DNA from: Dehalococcoidia bacterium
GTDB taxonomy: Bacteria > Chloroflexota > Dehalococcoidia > Lucifugimonadales > UBA3495
Length of the DNA: 64,000 nucleotides
Direction of reading: 5' to 3'
Assembly: GCA_022823505.1 (NCBI GenBank)
Contig: JAJEIA010000034.1
Span: forward strand, 15,492 to 79,491
The first letter of the stretch is position 1. Every line of letters starts with the position of its first letter. The position numbers were made by a program, and so were the translations under genes. The notes under the pieces were generated by a model. The model saw only the letters and a list, made by a program, of their open reading frames with translations, searched no databases and had not been told where the DNA came from. Below are positions 1 to 6,056 of this stretch, piece by piece.

Positions 1-1277
1 ATGTTGGGTGAGGTCGTTTGTTCGGCAGCCCAGGCCATGTAATGAGTGAAATTACCCGTGAACTTTTGCCAGTGCTTTCGTCGTCGAATCTTTTTCCCGC
101 GCAATGGCAATTCAGAGTATAAATTGTAAAGCGCTTGCTGCCTGAATGGAGCTCGTTGGCCGGCGCGCTCAGTTTCGTGTTCCCTCCGTACGTCCGCTGC
201 CGCAGTCCCTCTTTTGATTTTCCGATGGTACCGGTGGATGGAAGATGGGCGGATGAGTACGTTATCGCCGTTGAAGATAAGCCCGAGGTATTGAAGTTGC
301 CGTTGAGAGCTGAGCTCCGCGTGTTTGAGTGTCTGCGTTTTCTCGTGGCTACGGCTCAGATTGAGCGATACCAAGCACCGGTCGAGTTCGGCCAACACGG
401 TGTCTGAACCACCTTTCGGGAGCACAATCAGGATGTCGTCACAATATCTCCAGTAGCGCCCTCCCTGCTGGGTGACAAGATCGCGCATCTCCAGGTCAAG
501 GTCCGACAAGTACATGTTGGATAGCAACGGACTCAATGACGTCCCTTGGGGAATTCCTACTCCTGCCGCTGATCCCGCGCTTGGTTTCACGAGGTTACTC
601 AGAACGATTTTGTGCCGAAATTGTGTGGGCGCACACAGCCTTCGAATGTCGCGAGGTCCCTTACGCCGTCTCCTCAGCGGCAGGCCAAGTTTGTTGTAAA
701 GCTTGTGCCTTTCTACAACGCTGTAGTGCGTTACCGCTCGGAACACAGCGAAATGGTCAGCCGGCAGCCTTGTCACAGCCAAAAAACGTTGCCAAACCTG
801 CTTCAGAATCGCATGGTCTATTTGGTCGAAAAACGACTCGATATCGGTAGCGATGATTTCGCAGCCGGGGTGCAGTCTCACAAAATCGAAAGCCTTCTTC
901 GCCAAAGTGATATTGTTCTGGTTGATACTGCGGAATGCGGTGACCGTTTCATTGAGAGCGTTGGCGTTCAGCCACGCTTCGTACGGGCCTTCCAGCAGGC
1001 CTTTGTAACAGGCAAAAATATATCCGTCCTTGTGGGACGGATAAGCAATCGTGCGCGTTTTGGGCTCTTTGATGAGCTTCCTGCCGTTTTCCGTTTCCAC
1101 TTTTTTGATTCGCGGGCGTGTCAGCGAATACTGTATCAGCGGATGAAACGGGTGCCTGGCAATTGCTTGAGCGTTACTGACGAATTCAGTCGCTGCAAAC
1201 TCGCTAAGCGGTAGATCGAAGTGCGGATATGGCTTTTTTGAGTACCATTGGCTGGCCTGAGGCATTTGGAAATCCAT
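1..1277 (-). CDS. Stand-alone reverse transcriptase, defence-type (UG/Abi-like). The C-terminus runs off the left window edge; 425 codons are visible.
   Basis: Not in the supplied ORF track because there is no stop inside the window. My own minus-strand translation from ATG 1277 (alternative ATG 1265) is open to position 3. It reads MDFQMPQASQWYSKKPYPHFDLPLS...ATDIESFFDQIDH...GIPQGTSLSPLLSNMYL...YWRYCDDILIV...LSRSHEKTQ. These are RT motifs 1-2, the PQG/SP motif, YxDD and the xxKT motif. GC is visibly lower than the neighbouring acs. Confidence 0.8.
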   Translation of the reverse strand, partial: MDFQMPQASQWYSKKPYPHFDLPLSEFAATEFVSNAQAIARHPFHPLIQYSLTRPRIKKVETENGRKLIKEPKTRTIAYPSHKDGYIFACYKGLLEGPYEAWLNANALNETVTAFRSINQNNITLAKKAFDFVRLHPGCEIIATDIESFFDQIDHAILKQVWQRFLAVTRLPADHFAVFRAVTHYSVVERHKLYNKLGLPLRRRRKGPRDIRRLCAPTQFRHKIVLSNLVKPSAGSAAGVGIPQGTSLSPLLSNMYLSDLDLEMRDLVTQQGGRYWRYCDDILIVLPKGGSDTVLAELDRCLVSLNLSRSHEKTQTLKHAELSSQRQLQYLGLIFNGDNVLIRPSSIHRYHRKIKRGTAAADVRREHETERAGQRAPFRQQALYNLYSELPLRGKKIRRRKHWQKFTGNFTHYMAWAAEQTTSPN

Positions 1278-1551
1278 CCAACGTGGGCAAGGTCAAATGA
1301 CCGCGGCCTGTCTCCCCCGCCCACGTATGATTTGCTGACCTGGAGGTCTCGTCGAAAACCACCTACGTCATTTCCAACGGTTGAACCGTTGTGCCGCACG
1401 GATGTAATGAACAGGATGGACTCATGCTCGACCTCGTTGTCTCGGCGATTGCCGTGGCGTTGAAGCTCTGCTATAAGCATCCACTCTGATGCCTCCGCAC
1501 CAGATATCGTCATTATACCGTGTAAGCGACGGTCGCGCTACAGTGGCCGGG
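1278..1551 (-). other. 274-nt non-coding leader between the acs stop and the RT start; candidate 5' UTR or structured ncRNA
   Basis: No credible ORF; the 125-aa ORF at 1136..1513 is out of frame with the RT and overlaps it. A perfect TATAAT on the minus strand lies at 1512..1517. An 8-bp stem, 1281-1288 (acgtgggc) with 1319-1326 (gcccacgt), abuts the start codon. A 6-bp hairpin lies at 1375-1391 (caacgg ttgaa ccgttg). Confidence 0.3.
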
Positions 1552-3456
1552 CTACTCCTCCAGCGTCGTTATGTCCCCCGGGTCCAGGCCCAGCTCCTGT
1601 GCTTTCAGCAAACGGCGCATGATCTTGCCGGAGCGGGTCTTGGGCAGCGTCGGCGTGAACTCGATCTCCGAGGGGACGGCGATGGGTCCCAGCTCCCGGC
1701 GCACGTGCAACTGCAGGTCGTTGACCATGCGGTCGGAGCCCTCGCTGCCCATGCGCAGGGTGACGAAGCCCTTGATCACCTCGCCGCGCAGCGCGTCCGG
1801 CTTGCCGATGACCGCCGCCTCGGCTACCTCCGGGTGCGACACCAGCGCCGACTCCACCTCGGCGGAGCCGATGCGGTGGCCGGCAACGTTGAGCACGTCA
1901 TCGGCGCGGCCCACCACCATGTAGTAGCCGTCGGCGTCACGCAGGGCCACGTCGCCCGAAGAGTACACGCCGGGGATCTGCTGCCAGGTGTCGGCGTAGC
2001 GGTCCGGGTCGCCCCACACGGTGCGGGAGAAGTGCGGGAAGGGACGGCGGATCACCAGGAAGCCGCCCTTGTCCGGCTCCTCGATGGGCTGGCCCTCACG
2101 GTCGACGATGTCCATCACCGCGCCGGGCAGTGGCTTGCCCACCCGACCGGGACGGGTCGTCATGTTTGCGGTCGTACCCAGGCATGGGCCTCCCGTCTCG
2201 GTCTGCCACCAGTTGTCCACCATGTGGGCCCACTCGCCGCTGCCGCAGATGTGCTCATAGGCCCAGCGCAGCGCCTCGGGGTTGAGCGGCTCGCCGGCGC
2301 AGGTCAGGAAACGGAGCGAGCGCAGGTTGTACCGGCTGGCCGGCTCCTCGCCGTACCGCATCAGCATTCGCACCGCCGTGGGCGCGGTGAAGATGACGTT
2401 GACGCCGTACTTCTCGATGACCTCGTAGAAGACGGCGTTGTGGGGGAAGTCGGGCGCGCCCTCACGGAACACGGTGGTGGCGCCGGCGACCAGGGGAGCG
2501 TACACGATGTAGCTGTGACCAACGACCCAGCCGATATCGGACATGCACCAGAAGACGTCGTTGTCCTTCACATCCCAGAAGTTCTTGAAGTGGTAGTGGG
2601 TGCCCACCATGTAACCGCCGTGGACGTGGACGACGCCCTTGGGCCGGCCGGTGGTGCCGCTGGTGTAGAGGATGTACAGGGGCTCCTCGGCGTCCATGAC
2701 CTCGGCGGGACAGTCGATGCTGCTGCGCGCCATGAGGCCGTCGAAGTCGGTCTCACCGTCGCGCAGGCCCTCCAGAGCCAGCTCGCGGCGGAAGACGACG
2801 ACATGCTCCAGGCTGTCGCAGCCCTCCACGGCTTCGTCGGCGATGCCCTTGAGGTCGACGCGGTTGCCCCGGCGATAGCCGACATCCCCGGTGATTAGCG
2901 CCTTGGCGCTGGCGTCCTGGATGCGATCGCGCAGGGAGCCCACGCTGAAGCCGGCGTAGACCACGCTGTGGATGGCGCCGATGCGCGCGCAGGCCAGCAT
3001 GCTGATGGCGCCCTCGGGGGTCAGCGGCATGTAGATGACGACCCGGTCGCCCTTGCCCACGCCCAGGGACTTCAGCCCGTTGGCGAATCGATTGACCTGC
3101 TGGGCCAGGCGGGCGTAGGTGTAGACCTGCTCGGTGCCGTCCTCGCCCAGCCAGATCAGCGCCGCCTTGTTGCGCCGCTCGGTGGTAAGGTGGCGGTCCA
3201 GCGCATTGTAGGCGATGTTGGTCTGCCCGCCCACGAACCAACGGAAGTTGGGGTAGTCCCACTGGAAGACATCATCCCAGCGGCGGAACCAGTGTAGTTC
3301 CTCAGCGGCTTCGGCCCAGAAGCCTTCGGGATCCGCCACGGATCGGGCGTAGACGCCGTCGTAGTCGGACATGGTGGCCTGCTCGACCACGTGTGGCGGA
3401 GGCGGGATCTCCCCAGCCTCCTGCAAGAGATGGTCAATCTGTCCCTGCTGAACCAT
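1552..3456 (-). CDS. acs: Acetyl-CoA synthetase / acyl-CoA ligase (AMP-forming)
   Basis: 634 aa with the AMP-binding signature YTSGTTGRPKGV, an N-terminal DPEGFW region and a C-terminal PKTRSGKIMRR typical of Acs-family ligases. Confidence 0.9.
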   Translation of the reverse strand: MVQQGQIDHLLQEAGEIPPPPHVVEQATMSDYDGVYARSVADPEGFWAEAAEELHWFRRWDDVFQWDYPNFRWFVGGQTNIAYNALDRHLTTERRNKAALIWLGEDGTEQVYTYARLAQQVNRFANGLKSLGVGKGDRVVIYMPLTPEGAISMLACARIGAIHSVVYAGFSVGSLRDRIQDASAKALITGDVGYRRGNRVDLKGIADEAVEGCDSLEHVVVFRRELALEGLRDGETDFDGLMARSSIDCPAEVMDAEEPLYILYTSGTTGRPKGVVHVHGGYMVGTHYHFKNFWDVKDNDVFWCMSDIGWVVGHSYIVYAPLVAGATTVFREGAPDFPHNAVFYEVIEKYGVNVIFTAPTAVRMLMRYGEEPASRYNLRSLRFLTCAGEPLNPEALRWAYEHICGSGEWAHMVDNWWQTETGGPCLGTTANMTTRPGRVGKPLPGAVMDIVDREGQPIEEPDKGGFLVIRRPFPHFSRTVWGDPDRYADTWQQIPGVYSSGDVALRDADGYYMVVGRADDVLNVAGHRIGSAEVESALVSHPEVAEAAVIGKPDALRGEVIKGFVTLRMGSEGSDRMVNDLQLHVRRELGPIAVPSEIEFTPTLPKTRSGKIMRRLLKAQELGLDPGDITTLEE

Positions 3457-3595
3457 AAAAGCGCACCTCGCACATGAGCGTGTTGAGTGCGCCTATTGTA
3501 GCGGGAACGGCGGGATGATGTTTTTGAAAGCGTTTAGGCTCGACTTATCGCCGGACGGTTGCGGGCCGCATCGGGCCGCAGCCGCCGGTTGACGG

Positions 3596-3991
3596 CTATG
3601 ACTCAGCCGGTCCTGGGAATACGGAGGCGAGATTCTGGTCGAAGGTCATCATTTCGCTAACGCCGCGACGTTGGCAGGAGGCGATATGACAGAGGTCGCG
3701 GGCGGACAGGCCGGGGTGTTGCTCGTGGAGCTGGCGGGCGAGCAGGACGTCTTCGCGTTCGAGGGGCCAGACTTCAACACCCAAGCGGTAGAGAATTTCC
3801 ACGGCCGAATTGAACACCTCTCCCCGGTCTACGCGTGGATAAGCGTGTGCCAATTCTTGCAACACCTCCGCAGAAGTGCACAGTTGGATGCCGTTAACGT
3901 ACGATTGGTCGAAGAAATTCCACGCCGTTTCTTGCAAGGGGTGAGGGTCTCCCACGGTATACATGAACACGTTTGTATCGACGAAAGTCAT
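3596..3991 (-). CDS. vapC: PIN-domain toxin (VapC-like)
   Basis: MTFVDTNVFMY... is a typical PIN N-terminus. The ATG at 3991 overlaps the upstream antitoxin stop (ATGA, 3988-3991). The track ORF's longer N-terminal extension is unlikely. Confidence 0.75.
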   Translation of the reverse strand: MTFVDTNVFMYTVGDPHPLQETAWNFFDQSYVNGIQLCTSAEVLQELAHAYPRVDRGEVFNSAVEILYRLGVEVWPLEREDVLLARQLHEQHPGLSARDLCHIASCQRRGVSEMMTFDQNLASVFPGPAES

Positions 3992-4269
3992 ACTTCGGGC
4001 AACCCGTGCCGACGGGACTCGTCGATATTCTTGAGGTGCTCTTCCCAATCGGGTTCGGGCCCCGGACCTGCGTTGGCTGCTATCTCTCGGAAAAACGCCC
4101 TCAGCTCTTCGACCGACCGAAATCTAACGTCGGCTGGAGCCGCTGGTCGCGGACTGTGCTGCCGCGCCACCGAAATCAGCCAGGCGTCCAGCGTCTTGCC
4201 TTCGCGCTGAGCCTGCTCAGCAAAGCGCTGGCGGTCTTCCTCGGGTATGTCGAGCTGGATCGTAGCCAT
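3988..4269 (-). CDS. Small antitoxin (VapB-like or RHH-like) paired with the PIN toxin
   Basis: 93 aa, charged, lying immediately upstream of the PIN gene with a 4-nt overlap. This is the classic type II TA arrangement. Confidence 0.65.
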   Translation of the reverse strand: MATIQLDIPEEDRQRFAEQAQREGKTLDAWLISVARQHSPRPAAPADVRFRSVEELRAFFREIAANAGPGPEPDWEEHLKNIDESRRHGLPEV

Positions 4270-4330
4270 GGTGTCACCTTCCCTGCAAGATAGGATAGCA
4301 CTTCGCAGCGGTCTCTAACTCGCCACGCCG

Positions 4331-4360
4331 TTGACCCGCCGCGCCGTCGCGCCCTACAAT
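4331..4360 (+). promoter_or_regulatory. Sigma70-like promoter for the rhodanese gene
   Basis: TTGACC (4331-4336), an 18-nt spacer, then TACAAT (4355-4360), about 35 nt upstream of the ATG at 4396. Confidence 0.4.
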
Positions 4361-4395
4361 CCGGGGACTTTCTACCTGAACGCAGGAGCCGCTCC

Positions 4396-5235
4396 ATGAC
4401 GACCCACACCGACGACTACGCGCACCCCGAATACCTGACCGACGCAGCGTGGGTGGCCGCTCACCTGGATGATCCCGACTTGGTGGTGCTGGATTGCGCC
4501 AACACCGCCGATGCCTGGCAACGGGGACACATTCCCGGCGCTCATCACGTCGCCGACAACTGGGCCAAGAACCCCGACACCAACCGGCAGCACGTCATGA
4601 CGCCCGAGCAGTTCAAGGCCATGGCCGAGGGCCTCGGCATCGGCGACGACACCACGGTGATCACCTACGACCATGCCCAGGGGCTCACGGCGGCGCGCAT
4701 CTGGTGGGTGTTCAGCTACTACGGCCACAGCAAGGTGAAGGTGCTCAACGGCGGCTGGCGGGCGTGGGTCAACGCCGGTCAATCCGTCGACTTCGGGCGA
4801 GCCAGGGCTCCGGCGGCGGTGACCTTCACGCCTCGGGCCGACGAGTCGTTCATCGCCACCGGCGACGAGCTCAAGGAGGCCTGCACTCTGGACAACGTGG
4901 TGGTCTGGGACGTGCGCAGCGACGCCGAGTGGGACGGCACTGCCGAGAACTATCGCAACAAGCGCGTGGGCCACGTGCCCGGCGCGGTGCACCTGGAGTG
5001 GTTCCACCTGATGGACCGCAACACCCACGAGTTCAAGCCGGCTGCCGAGATCCGGCGCATCCTGACGGAGCACGGCATCACCCCCGACAAGACGGCCTAC
5101 TCCTATTGACAGGCCGGCATCCGTGCGGCGCACGGAAACTTCGTACTCCGCCTGGTCGGTTTCGAGAACGCCAAAAACTACGATGCGTCCATGGGAGAGT
5201 GGGCCAACCGGGACGACACGCCCCTGACCGTGTGA
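4396..5235 (+). CDS. Two-domain rhodanese / thiosulfate sulfurtransferase with an in-frame TGA (5107-5109) at the catalytic Cys position. Either a selenocysteine candidate or a point-mutated pseudogene.
   Basis: The track ORF stops at ...PDKTAYSY*. The same frame continues without interruption as QAGIRAAHGNFVLRLVGFENAKNYDASMGEWANRDDTPLTV* (stop 5233-5235). This gives a roughly 279-aa protein of normal two-domain rhodanese length. The TGA sits exactly where the active-site loop C-x-x-G-x-R begins. Confidence 0.6.
5120..5136 (+). promoter_or_regulatory. Hairpin downstream of the in-frame UGA (SECIS-like candidate)
   Basis: tccgtgc-ggc-gcacgga is a perfect 7-bp stem starting 11 nt after the UGA, with a G-rich apical loop about 18-20 nt from the UGA. 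Confidence 0.35.
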
Positions 5236-5267
5236 GGCAGGGTGTCTGTGGAGTTGGAAGGCCGCCC

Positions 5268-5498
5268 ATGAAAATACTGAGCCCGACGATGAACATATCG
5301 GGCGGCGCCGCCATCGTTTCCGGTGGGGCGGCGCTGCTGTTGATCGGCTACCTGCTCTACCGGCAGACCCGACAAGCCGAAGGACGCGCGGTGGCTGCGG
5401 AGGCCACCGTGGAGCAGTTGCGCGCTGAAATGGCCGATCTGCGAGCCGAAACGGCGTCGCTGCGGGACCAGCGCCGGCGCAACCGTCGGAAGCGCTAG
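5268..5498 (+). CDS. Small membrane-anchored coiled-coil protein (hypothetical)
   Basis: MKILSPTMNISGGAAIVSGGAALLLIGYLLY (TM helix) followed by a charged helical tail. A GGAAGG RBS lies about 7 nt upstream. It forms the last 77 codons of a longer spurious track ORF. Confidence 0.45.
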   Translation: MKILSPTMNISGGAAIVSGGAALLLIGYLLYRQTRQAEGRAVAAEATVEQLRAEMADLRAETASLRDQRRRNRRKR

Positions 5499-5507
5499 CG
5501 CTCGGCG

Positions 5508-6056
5508 ATGGCCCGAAGGGTGCGGATACGGCGGGTCATCGATGGCGACTCGCTGGAGGTCAAGTACGCCGGGTTGTTCAGCTTCCTGCGCCGGCCGTTT
5601 CCGGTGCGGCTCTACGGCATCGATGCGCCGGAGTTGGCGCAGCCCTACGGACAGGAGTCGCGCAAGCAGCTCGAATCTCTGGTGCGCCGGGGCGGGATGC
5701 ACATGGAGGCGATGGCGACGGACCGTTACGGGCGCACGGTGGGGCTGCTCTACCGACGGCGCCGCCGGGGTCAATCGGTCAACGTGGAGATGGTGCGCGC
5801 CGGCATGGCGTGGTGGTATCGCCGCTACGGAGGCAGAGACTTGGGGTTCCCGCAGGCGGAGGCCGAGGCCAAGCGGCAGCGGCGCGGCCTGTGGCGGGAT
5901 GGCAACCGCGCCCGGGCTCCCTGGGATTATCGGGCAGACCTGCGGCGGGCGCGGCAACGGCGGCGACGCATCCGGCGCATTCTCACCTGGGCATTGACCG
6001 GCTTGTTTGCCATCGTGCTGGCGGGGATGGCTTTGGCGATCTACACTCAATTGTAA
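5508..6056 (+). CDS. Thermonuclease (staphylococcal nuclease-like) with a C-terminal TM anchor
   Basis: VIDGDSLEV...VRLYGIDAPE...GRTVG...VNVEMVRAGMAW...AEAKRQRRGLW are SNase-fold hallmarks. The C-terminal segment ILTWALTGLFAIVLAGMALAIY is hydrophobic. Confidence 0.8.
   Translation: MARRVRIRRVIDGDSLEVKYAGLFSFLRRPFPVRLYGIDAPELAQPYGQESRKQLESLVRRGGMHMEAMATDRYGRTVGLLYRRRRRGQSVNVEMVRAGMAWWYRRYGGRDLGFPQAEAEAKRQRRGLWRDGNRARAPWDYRADLRRARQRRRRIRRILTWALTGLFAIVLAGMALAIYTQL

Follow-up and report, generated by a model that had tools for sequence, protein, structure and literature searches.

A reverse transcriptase (RT) gene preceded by a long leader lies at the left end of the window, by which is meant the whole stretch of Dehalococcoidia (Chloroflexota) DNA analysed here (64,000 nucleotides; contig JAJEIA010000034.1, positions 15,492 to 79,491). 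Which kind of RT is this, and what is its leader for? The original prediction saw a stand-alone RT of the UG/DRT type with a neighbouring non-coding RNA (ncRNA), as opposed to an RT from a group II intron or a retron. This core inference is supported and can be made specific. The locus is very likely an intact DRT2 anti-phage system, in which an RT gene and a same-strand upstream ncRNA of ~234 nt would give rise to a 'neo' gene through template-jumping cDNA synthesis.

Translation of minus-strand positions 1-1277 yields 425 codons without a stop, and the RT motifs reported earlier, DIESFFDQIDH, GIPQGTSLSPLLSN, YCDD (446-435) and SHEKT, were all confirmed in this frame. YCDD occupies residues 274-277, and the catalytic motif is intact. 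As had been claimed, the frame is missing from the program-made ORF list, because it leaves the window at the left edge. The ATG at 1277 is not conserved as a start among the relatives; the RT start that they conserve is ATG 1265-1263 (MPQASQWY...). The full-length product of the window's own gene is present in the protein database (P0001, 442 aa), with codons 1-421 of 442 inside the window and 21 residues past its left edge. The C-terminal domain that had been expected beyond the edge did not materialize: 21 residues are missing, and the full-length protein covers the Drt2 profile from 1 to 416 of 416. An ORF break just outside the window had also been envisaged; P0001 is continuous, with no frameshift in the 21 codons concerned.

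Judged from profile and sequence matches, the window RT belongs to the DRT2 (UG2) family. The PADLOC Drt2 models match it with E = 3e-117 and 5e-113 (Drt2 matches as a whole range from e-113 to e-118), and the next family follows at 1e-25. The NCBIfam Drt2 equivalog NF041746, with a cut-off of 390 bits, scores 394.9 bits on full-length P0001 and 381.4 bits on the window fragment alone. In sequence comparison with the PDB, the DRT2 structures 9c0i and 9lje are both matched at about 3e-82 (9c0i, from Klebsiella: E = 3.5e-82, residues 6-387). A Pfam scan of the RT gives RVT_1 alone; maturase and endonuclease domains were not found, which upholds the earlier remark that no such part is visible.

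The gene was described as lying in a lower-GC patch next to a vapBC pair. The GC dip is real (50-56% across 1-1600 vs 63-71% in the flanks). The adjacency is not: an acetyl-CoA synthetase gene (acs, 1552-3456) separates the RT from the supposed pair, a gene for a PIN-domain protein (3596-4048) with a small ORF upstream of it (3988-4269). A plus-strand ORF of 469 aa at 1489-2898 was rejected as a shadow ORF of the high-GC acs. Comparison of six related loci revealed no conserved partner gene downstream of the RT, contrary to what had been suggested. The downstream neighbours differ between L015-L018 and L046-L051 and include small ORFs, PIN, HTH, Usp, CN_hydrolase and EF-G genes. By these related loci, the DRT2 locus, whose own downstream side lies past the window edge, is a single-protein system without a conserved partner gene.

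The leader is gene-free over 1278-1551, which confirms the 274-nt ORF-free leader of the original prediction (1266-1551 if counted from the conserved start), and the program-listed ORFs within it (e.g., 1136-1513, minus strand) have no support. The perfect TATAAT reported there is present at minus-strand 1517-1512, and the relatives retain a -10 element at this place. Their sense -35 element is TTGnnA, 17 nt upstream of the -10; the corresponding position of the window (1540-1535, TAGCGC) is degenerate. A consensus promoter/terminator scan of 1150-1750 called nothing at its threshold, the sense -10 included.

Alignments and covariation identify the leader as the non-coding RNA of DRT2, at about 1506-1273 of the minus strand, its ends being set by the promoter position and by the point where conservation stops. 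Among ~25 loci of the Dehalococcoidia clade with readable upstream sequence, almost all keep the leader upstream of the RT, and its conservation extends to about 50% RT identity. The covariance model R1 scores 252 bits on the leader, the sole full-length copy in the window. In nearly every clade locus, R1 recovers a full-length copy upstream of the RT. The exceptions within the clade are L051, with the terminal stem alone, L050, which is shortened and weaker, and L049, which is cut by the contig end. The minimum free energy z-score of the leader RNA is -3.9. The two hairpins predicted earlier are real, but the structure is richer than was claimed, with five covarying helices. The comparison with homologous loci thus shows the leader to be conserved, structured and covarying: paired cells make up 97.3% of the alignment vs 34-49% with partners slid, compensatory change is seen in 17 pairs vs 1-6 in the slid controls, and 0/500 shuffles match the observed pairing and covariation values. 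Features of the locus are collected in Table 1. The two candidate pseudoknot strands, GCGGC and GCCGC, are complementary and invariant, both here and in other DRT2 clades, and hence no covariation test is possible for them. GCGGC together with the terminal-loop GGCCGC also occurs in DRT2 leaders from Photobacterium, Planctomycetota and others, and GCGGC is present in metagenome leaders too. R1 itself finds no match in the DRT2 leaders of other clades (L013, L026-L028, L044, L045), so that cross-clade homology of the template part is carried by shared motifs only.

Table 1. Features of the predicted DRT2 locus (window positions)
Feature	Position	Strand	Basis
DRT2 reverse transcriptase gene	1..1265	-	frame, RVT_1, Drt2 profiles, P0001, PDB matches
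Predicted DRT2 ncRNA, about 234 nt (5' handle, template, 3' scaffold)	1273..1506	-	alignments, covariation, model R1
-10 TATAAT, putative sense promoter of ncRNA-RT transcript	1512..1517	-	relatives keep TAnAAT at same place
5' handle hairpin, 8 bp, UCUGGUGC-GGAG-GCAUCAGA	1485..1504	-	helix 1: compensatory changes in 5/8 pairs
Small hairpin within template, CGGC-AAUC-GCCG	1443..1454	-	helix 3: compensatory changes in 3/4 pairs
Candidate pseudoknot 5' strand GCGGC, start of 3' scaffold	1393..1397	-	invariant in clade
Scaffold hairpin CAACGG-UUCAA-CCGUUG	1375..1391	-	helix 5: 2 pairs with compensatory changes
Longer scaffold hairpin, 'tower'-like	1336..1370	-	helices 6 and 7
Long terminal stem-loop, 14 pairs, ends 16 nt before RT start codon	1281..1326	-	helix 8: 3 pairs with compensatory changes
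Candidate pseudoknot 3' strand GCCGC, terminal-stem loop	1303..1307	-	helix 4: 100% pairable
Putative antisense -35 element TTGCCG, 17 bp upstream of element A	1449..1454	+	TTGACA, TTGACG or TTGAAA in relatives
Element A, TATAAG, preceded by TG at 1469-1470 (extended -10 without final T); RNA CUUAUA	1472..1477	+	TAnAAn in 23 loci
Element S, TGTAAT; RNA AUUACA	1403..1408	+	nnnAAT in all relatives, TATAAT in several
Putative ribosome-binding site AGGA (1413-1416) and ATG (1424-1426) of proto-neo frame	1413..1426	+	GGAG/AGGA + ATG in relatives
Predicted cDNA repeat unit, 69 nt, 23 codons, encodes EQDGLMLDLVVSAIAVALKLCYK	1409..1477	+	inferred; no stop on concatenation

The way in which such a locus could work is known from Klebsiella. 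There the RNA and the RT are co-transcribed, the RT binds the RNA scaffold, and it copies the central template over and over by jumping from the template 5' end to the 3' end (PMC11100668, PMC12039810). Upon phage infection, double-stranded concatemeric cDNA is formed. A promoter arises at the repeat junction and yields a transcript with a stop-free 'neo' frame, the repetitive protein product of which halts growth (PMC11100668, PMC12039810). The important coding information of the leader is to be sought on its opposite strand, which was overlooked in the first reading.

On that strand, a -35 element stands 17 bp before the -10-like hexamer termed element A, the two being contiguous on the genome, and a second, T-bearing hexamer, element S, lies one unit away. 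Among the 23 loci analysed, element A never ends in T (0/23) and element S always ends in AAT, although the S hexamer was assigned with some freedom in L004, L012, L019 and L020. In L003, both elements carry the same T-to-C change (TACAAA, CACAAT). Part of the -35 hexamer is at the same time a covarying RNA stem, which is a second possible cause of its conservation. The relatives have GGAG or AGGA and an ATG (GTG in two loci) at a fixed position. On the linear genome, the proto-neo frame runs for 21 codons to TGA 1487-1489. The distance from A to S is 69, 72, 90, 93, 96, 99, 102 or 111 nt, in all 23 loci a multiple of 3, and the unit delimited in this way, whose boundaries are inferred, is stop-free in one frame in 23/23 loci. 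The stretch from S to the pseudoknot strand varies in length by steps of 1-2 nt across the loci and has in-frame stops in L007, L019 and L020.

A single antisense frame is open over the template in 20/20 relatives, it varies least at codon position 2, and its peptides share M, a hydrophobic stretch and [CWV]Y[KN], with conservative replacements. The predicted Neo repeat, EQDGLMLDLVVSAIAVALKLCYK, is hydrophobic and probably helical. The openness of the frame has to be read against the shuffles, which leave a 23-codon frame open at 0.1-0.4, and against the sense strand, which is frequently open too. Counts of synonymous and non-synonymous changes put the proposed frame no higher than a neighbouring one. 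An RNA pairing behind the conservation of CUUAUAGCA was considered and found unconvincing, as a 2-bp long-range contact alone is predicted.

From these features we propose that elements A and S may be the 5' and 3' terminal repeats of the template, with the cDNA end re-annealing at S, although the exact jump sites are not readable from sequence. The repeat unit would be bounded by the two -10 cores and amount to 69 nt or 23 codons. Copying of UUAUA would leave a cDNA end ...TATAA, which could re-anneal to the downstream copy of the core, and the next base to be copied would add a T. Each junction would then read TTGCCG, a 17-bp spacer and (TGC)TATAAT, followed by AGGA and ATG. On the genome, the critical last T is absent from TATAAG, and no conserved -35 accompanies TGTAAT. 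Template jumping would thus be guided by the two copies of the -10 core and not by ACA motifs. This would delineate a Dehalococcoidia subfamily of DRT2 in which the split of the promoter falls within the -10 and not in the spacer, the terminal repeats are UUAUA and not ACA, the jump turns TATAAG into TATAAT beside an existing -35, and the product is a hydrophobic helical repeat of 23-37 codons. We hold this more detailed picture tentatively, as a possibility that falls somewhat short of an even chance. Other boundaries were tried and rejected. A unit between two ACA motifs, from 1440 to 1311 (129 nt, stop-free in antisense), was discarded because neither ACA is shared by the relatives and about 35 nt would be left for the scaffold; conservation of the ACA-1/ACA-2 kind was absent at the template boundaries in alignments A2 and A3. 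The short motifs ACGG (66 nt), TGC (81 nt) and GAGCGG (87 nt), taken as jump sites, are inconsistent across the relatives.

Three other readings of the locus were weighed. The template may instead comprise the whole stretch from the 5' hairpin to the pseudoknot (about 84-93 nt, 28-31 codons) of the same DRT2 RNA. The full TTGCCG-17-TATAAG would then be contained in each unit, and expression would be tied to the concatemer by the placement of the ORF, not by promoter repair. The templates of Klebsiella (PMC12039810) and Photobacterium do fill the space between 5' handle and pseudoknot, in the main clade no stop interrupts the antisense frame between the pseudoknot strand and the GAG that follows the hairpin, and the GAGNGG after the hairpin resembles the 3'-flank GNGCGG, the match in L016 being a perfect 6 nt at a distance of 87 nt. 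This likeness is, however, weak in L010, L004 and L007. The hairpin-pseudoknot distance (90, 91, 113, 114, 115 or 118 nt) is not constant modulo 3, and the in-frame stops and single-nucleotide steps of the S-to-pseudoknot spacer fall inside such a unit. We regard the longer template as unlikely. Slightly less likely still is that a DRT2-like RT and scaffold make another product, either repetitive DNA that codes for nothing or an antisense transcript of the genomic TTGCCG-17-TATAAG promoter, and that the open frame is incidental. Tang et al. report difficulty in annotating Neo in divergent clades of DRT2, and they suggest alternative mechanisms (PMC11100668), and the adjoining -35 and -10-like elements, the frequency of chance open frames of such length and the indecisive synonymous-change statistics all fit this idea. 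What it leaves aside is that a frame fixed relative to the hexamers is open in every locus over eight unit lengths, each a multiple of 3, and that the hydrophobic pattern of the peptide is kept.

The third reading departs from DRT2 altogether and takes the RT to be of group II intron, classical retron or Abi type, or the locus to be an inactive relic. Weak secondary matches exist, and so do clearly decayed relatives, L014, which carries an IS insertion and whose RT is broken, and L050, whose RNA lacks the 5' part. The scores are nevertheless far under the respective cut-offs: 73 bits vs 300 for the group II intron model TIGR04416, 52 vs 235 for retron St85 and 64 vs 200 for Drt3a, with the PADLOC retron RT model at 2e-11. 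A search of Rfam over 1-4500 at E <= 1 returned no matching family, and neither intron RNA nor retron RNA was seen. The window ORF is unbroken with its catalytic motif, and its RNA scores level with the best relatives. We regard such an origin or such decay as very improbable.

As a DRT2 system, the locus can be set beside that of Klebsiella pneumoniae, KpnDRT2 (PMC11100668, PMC12039810, PDB 9c0i). Both have one RT gene, of the same family, and, on the same strand upstream, an ncRNA whose central template lies between a 5' hairpin and a 3' hairpin scaffold with a pseudoknot (a candidate in the present case). The antisense strand of the template shows the same set of elements in both (putative in the present locus), namely -35, -10, ribosome-binding site, start codon and a frame without stops, and the unit is a multiple of 3, given the boundaries proposed here. 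The differences are considerable. The host is a member of the Dehalococcoidia with a high-GC genome, unlike the Klebsiella host, and the window RT has diverged (about 35% identity, measured against the Photobacterium drt2). The KpnDRT2 RNA has 281 nt vs about 234 nt here, and the units reported for close Klebsiella homologues have 111-129 nt vs the predicted 69 nt. ACA-1 and ACA-2, which flank the KpnDRT2 template, are not conserved here, and two -10 cores (UUAUA) stand exactly one unit apart. In KpnDRT2, the -35 and -10 are out of order and 91 bp apart on the genome, whereas here the -35 and the T-less -10 are contiguous.

A further comparison is offered by the drt2 of the Photobacterium damselae plasmid pPHDD1 (NZ_CP065043.1, L044), a gene annotated Drt2. 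On the RNA strand of its leader, a 5' hairpin, TGTCAA and ATTATA are likewise followed by GCGGC and by a terminal stem with GGCCGC in the loop. AGAT recurs at 563 and 674, and by this repeat the unit can be read as 111 nt, with the 17-bp spacer restored. Unlike the present locus, it shows the canonical split, with the -35 located 4-6 nt from the template 5' end, and it has no second -10 copy upstream. By analogy, telomerase RNA and DRT10 are also alike in placing a template between a 5' stem and a 3' pseudoknot and in realigning the DNA end by a short terminal repeat, a parallel drawn in PMC12039810. Here the unit is far longer and protein-coding, and the priming and the RT lineage differ.

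DRT2 is already known as a kind of system, and the locus adds a member with a shorter template, whose details are possibly a variant. DRT2 ranks among the strangest routes of gene expression, since the gene arises only after reverse transcription. The present locus places it in an uncultured high-GC lineage of the Chloroflexota, far from the enterobacteria in which it has been studied. Present annotation would name the RT alone; the hidden neo frame and the RNA, for which Rfam has no family, would both escape it. Should the proposed junction prove right, the clade would constitute a natural experiment on the essentials of DRT2, which would be a repeat at the template ends, a unit length divisible by 3 and a promoter that depends on the junction; the ACA motifs, the unit length and the site at which the promoter is cut would be its variable features. 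Such knowledge may be of use in finding hidden genes of the DRT2 sort and in employing DRT2 for making designed repeats.

The reverse transcriptase (RT) gene and its leader form a DRT2 system, which is of a known kind. Translation of minus-strand positions 1-1277 confirmed the predicted frame of 425 codons, with zero stops and the RT motifs DIESFFDQIDH, GIPQGTSLSPLLSN, YCDD and SHEKT. The gene is missing from the mechanical ORF list because its frame leaves the window at the left edge. It lies, as had been noticed, in a patch of lower GC (50-56% across 1-1600 vs 63-71% flanking). RVT_1 was the sole Pfam domain; two PADLOC Drt2 models matched the window RT at 3e-117 and 5e-113, the runner-up family UG17 reaching 1e-25, and the solved DRT2 structures 9c0i and 9lje matched its sequence at about 3e-82. 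The window fragment scored 381 bits against the NCBIfam Drt2 equivalog, slightly below the cut-off of 390. The full-length database protein P0001 (442 aa, 100% identity to the window RT) scored 394.9 bits and covered the profile completely (1-416/416), while group II intron, retron and Drt3a models all remained far under their cut-offs on it. Its N-terminus MPQASQWY sets the start at ATG 1265. A C-terminal domain had been expected past the window edge; as merely 21 residues fall outside, the RT has no further domain.

In every related locus viewed, about 285 nt of gene-free leader precede the RT, and 17 leaders are alignable end to end, down to about 50% RT identity. RNAalifold was applied to 12 sequences of equal architecture. 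On the predicted structure, 97.3% of cells are paired and 17 pairs are changed on both sides, vs 34-49% and 1-6 in slid controls; 0/500 shuffles matched the observed pairing values. The fold of the window RNA itself surpasses that of shuffles by 3.9 standard deviations. With the Drt2 profile scores, this conserved, covarying leader upholds the main idea of the original prediction, a UG/DRT-type RT with a structured non-coding RNA. GCGGC (1397-1393, minus) is complementary to GCCGC (1307-1303, minus) in the terminal-stem loop; both are invariant, which precludes a covariation test. They make a candidate pseudoknot that fits the one in the Klebsiella structure (PMC12039810), and both recur in DRT2 leaders of Photobacterium, a Planctomycetota MAG and a metagenome contig. 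The covariance model R1, built on the same 12 sequences, matched once at full length in the window (1273-1506, minus, 252 bits) and at full length ahead of the RT in almost all clade loci. Of the exceptions, L051 gave just the terminal stem, L050 a shortened match of 61 bits, and L049 one truncated by the end of the contig. R1 had no match on DRT2 loci of other clades, and an Rfam search of window 1-4500 returned no family matching the leader.

Features of the leader on both strands and neighbouring genes
Feature	Position	Strand	Remark
Pseudoknot strand GTGCCGC	from 1391 upward	plus	then 5 nt
Element S, TGTAAT	1403-1408	plus	
Ribosome-binding site AGGA	1413-1416	plus	
ATG	1424-1426	plus	
-35, TTGCCG	1449-1454	plus	then 17 nt ending TGC
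Element A, TATAAG	1472-1477	plus	
CATCCACTC, then TGA within 5' hairpin	directly after element A	plus	
5' hairpin	1504-1485	minus	RNAalifold, 12 sequences
Small hairpin in central part	1454-1443	minus	RNAalifold, 12 sequences
Hairpin	1391-1375	minus	RNAalifold, 12 sequences
Longer hairpin	1370-1336	minus	RNAalifold, 12 sequences
Terminal stem, 14 pairs	1326-1281	minus	RNAalifold, 12 sequences
acs (acetyl-CoA synthetase)	1552-3456	minus	upstream neighbour of RT
PIN-domain gene	3596-4048		farther from RT than acs
Small partner ORF of PIN gene	3988-4269		farther from RT than acs

The TATAAT at 1517-1512 (minus) proved a real element, kept in relatives as TAnAAT; the 5' hairpin begins about 7 nt past it. 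Most relatives carry TTGnnA 17 nt upstream. The window has the poor -35 TAGCGC there, and read-through from acs may contribute. This sense -10 and the antisense TTGCCG-17-TATAAG (1449-1477, plus) are convergent, with predicted start sites about 20 bp apart and the 5' hairpin between them; should the T-less -10 keep residual activity, the opposing transcription could weaken the ncRNA-RT promoter.

In Klebsiella pneumoniae DRT2, a 281-nt RNA holds a 120-nt template flanked by a 5' handle and a pseudoknot, and the RT copies the template over and over, with two ACA motifs as the points between which it jumps. In the antisense concatemer a -35 and a -10 come together across the junction, and the stop-free frame neo is present with a start codon and a ribosome-binding site; DRT2 unit lengths are multiples of 3 (PMC11100668, PMC12039810). 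Neo is difficult to annotate in more divergent clades (Tang et al., PMC11100668).

The plus strand of the window leader has one frame, including the ATG, open from the pseudoknot strand to the TGA in the 5' hairpin. The antisense layout is common to all relatives: a -35 (TTGCCG, TTGACA, TTGACG or TTGAAA) stands 17-18 bp from TAnAAn, and element S is followed by GGAG or AGGA and ATG (GTG in 2 loci). The peptides consist of M, 15-25 mostly hydrophobic residues and [CWV]Y[KN], with conservative replacements, and codon position 2 is the least variable within clades. Short open frames often arise by chance, the -35 hexamer partly overlaps an RNA stem, and the coding signal is moderate because the synonymous fraction fails to single out the proposed frame. 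A consensus promoter scan of 1150-1750 called nothing, partly since the tool demands a final T in the -10. A weak promoter-like genomic pair, TTGAAC at 1381-1386 (plus; opposite the scaffold-hairpin loop) 16 bp upstream of TGTAAT, precedes the proto-neo start in the window and L015 only, and is probably due to chance. The plus-strand 469-aa ORF 1489-2898 was rejected as a gene, being a typical high-GC shadow frame antisense to acs; its ATG sits within the 5' hairpin and is not conserved.

The repeat unit might end at the pseudoknot, as the 3' template boundary, or at element S. S starts 10-17 nt from the pseudoknot end, and the spacer differs by 1-2 nt between lineages and has in-frame stops in L007, L019 and L020; the hairpin-to-pseudoknot distance is inconstant modulo 3. 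These features argue against the pseudoknot and point to a boundary at S. The A-to-S distance is 69, 72, 90, 93, 96, 99, 102 or 111 nt, a multiple of 3 in 23/23 loci analysed, all stop-free in the same frame, with the S hexamer picked with some freedom in four distant loci. The window unit would thus be 1409-1477, 69 nt, repeat EQDGLMLDLVVSAIAVALKLCYK. Both hexamers usually share ATAA or TATAA, and L003 has an identical T-to-C change in both (TACAAA, CACAAT). Element A retains T1, A2 and the upstream TG, its last base being G, A or C and never T (23/23 loci); S is free at its initial positions and always ends in AAT.

These hexamers are most simply read as a jump at the -10 core. The RT would copy element A as far as UUAUA, leaving a cDNA end ...TATAA to pair with UUAUA of element S (UUACA in the window), and the next templated base would be the added T. 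The junction would then read TTGCCG-17-(TGC)TATAAT, with the ribosome-binding site and ATG after it. In the genome itself, the -35 has only a T-less copy beside it, and the T-bearing copy lacks a conserved -35. By contrast, the Photobacterium plasmid drt2 leader has ACA and TGTCAA directly after the 5' hairpin, ATTATA 82 nt beyond, and an AGAT repeat 111 nt apart that restores the 17-bp spacer; a second upstream -10 copy is absent. The Dehalococcoidia clade thus carries roughly 23 extra nt from hairpin to -35, made up of a spacer and a partial -10.

Close relatives found in genomes are all from Dehalococcoidia MAGs. L015-L018, the loci closest to the window (73-90% identity), have the RT in the same slot between acs and usp amid varying toxin-antitoxin pairs (HicAB, PIN with antitoxin, ParE) and type ISP restriction-modification genes, whose combination differs from genome to genome; the slot resembles a small, variable islet of defence genes. 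The order SNase, rhodanese, small ORF with PIN, acs is common to the window (within 1552-6056) and L016. The vapBC pair described as next to the RT is indeed nearby, but acs intervenes. A downstream partner, also suggested, found no counterpart: among L015-L018 and L046-L051, none of the genes that follow the RT is conserved.

Several relatives are decayed or divergent. L014 (1515-3624) has a complete RNA element 1.3 kb upstream of an RT frame that ends after 207 codons; two minus-strand ORFs (1709-2853), which from their translations look like an IS630-type transposase, are inserted in the 3' scaffold, and a second, partial scaffold match lies at 2913-2986. In L050 (1-700) the element adjoins a DDE_3 transposase gene, the model match is restricted to 510-694, and on the antisense strand element A and the 5' hairpin are no longer seen past the -35; it was probably truncated through insertion. 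In L008 (2881-3116) the RNA match overlaps an RT match that starts no earlier than query residue 28, so that this copy may have been rearranged or damaged at its N-terminus. L051 (500-700; RT 51% identity) retains just the terminal stem of the model and a GCGGTAC motif; its centre seems different, and it may represent a further template architecture inside the clade.

The unit and the split -10, read from sequence comparison, are proposed variant features. Standard annotation would name the RT correctly and would miss both the RNA and the hidden frame.
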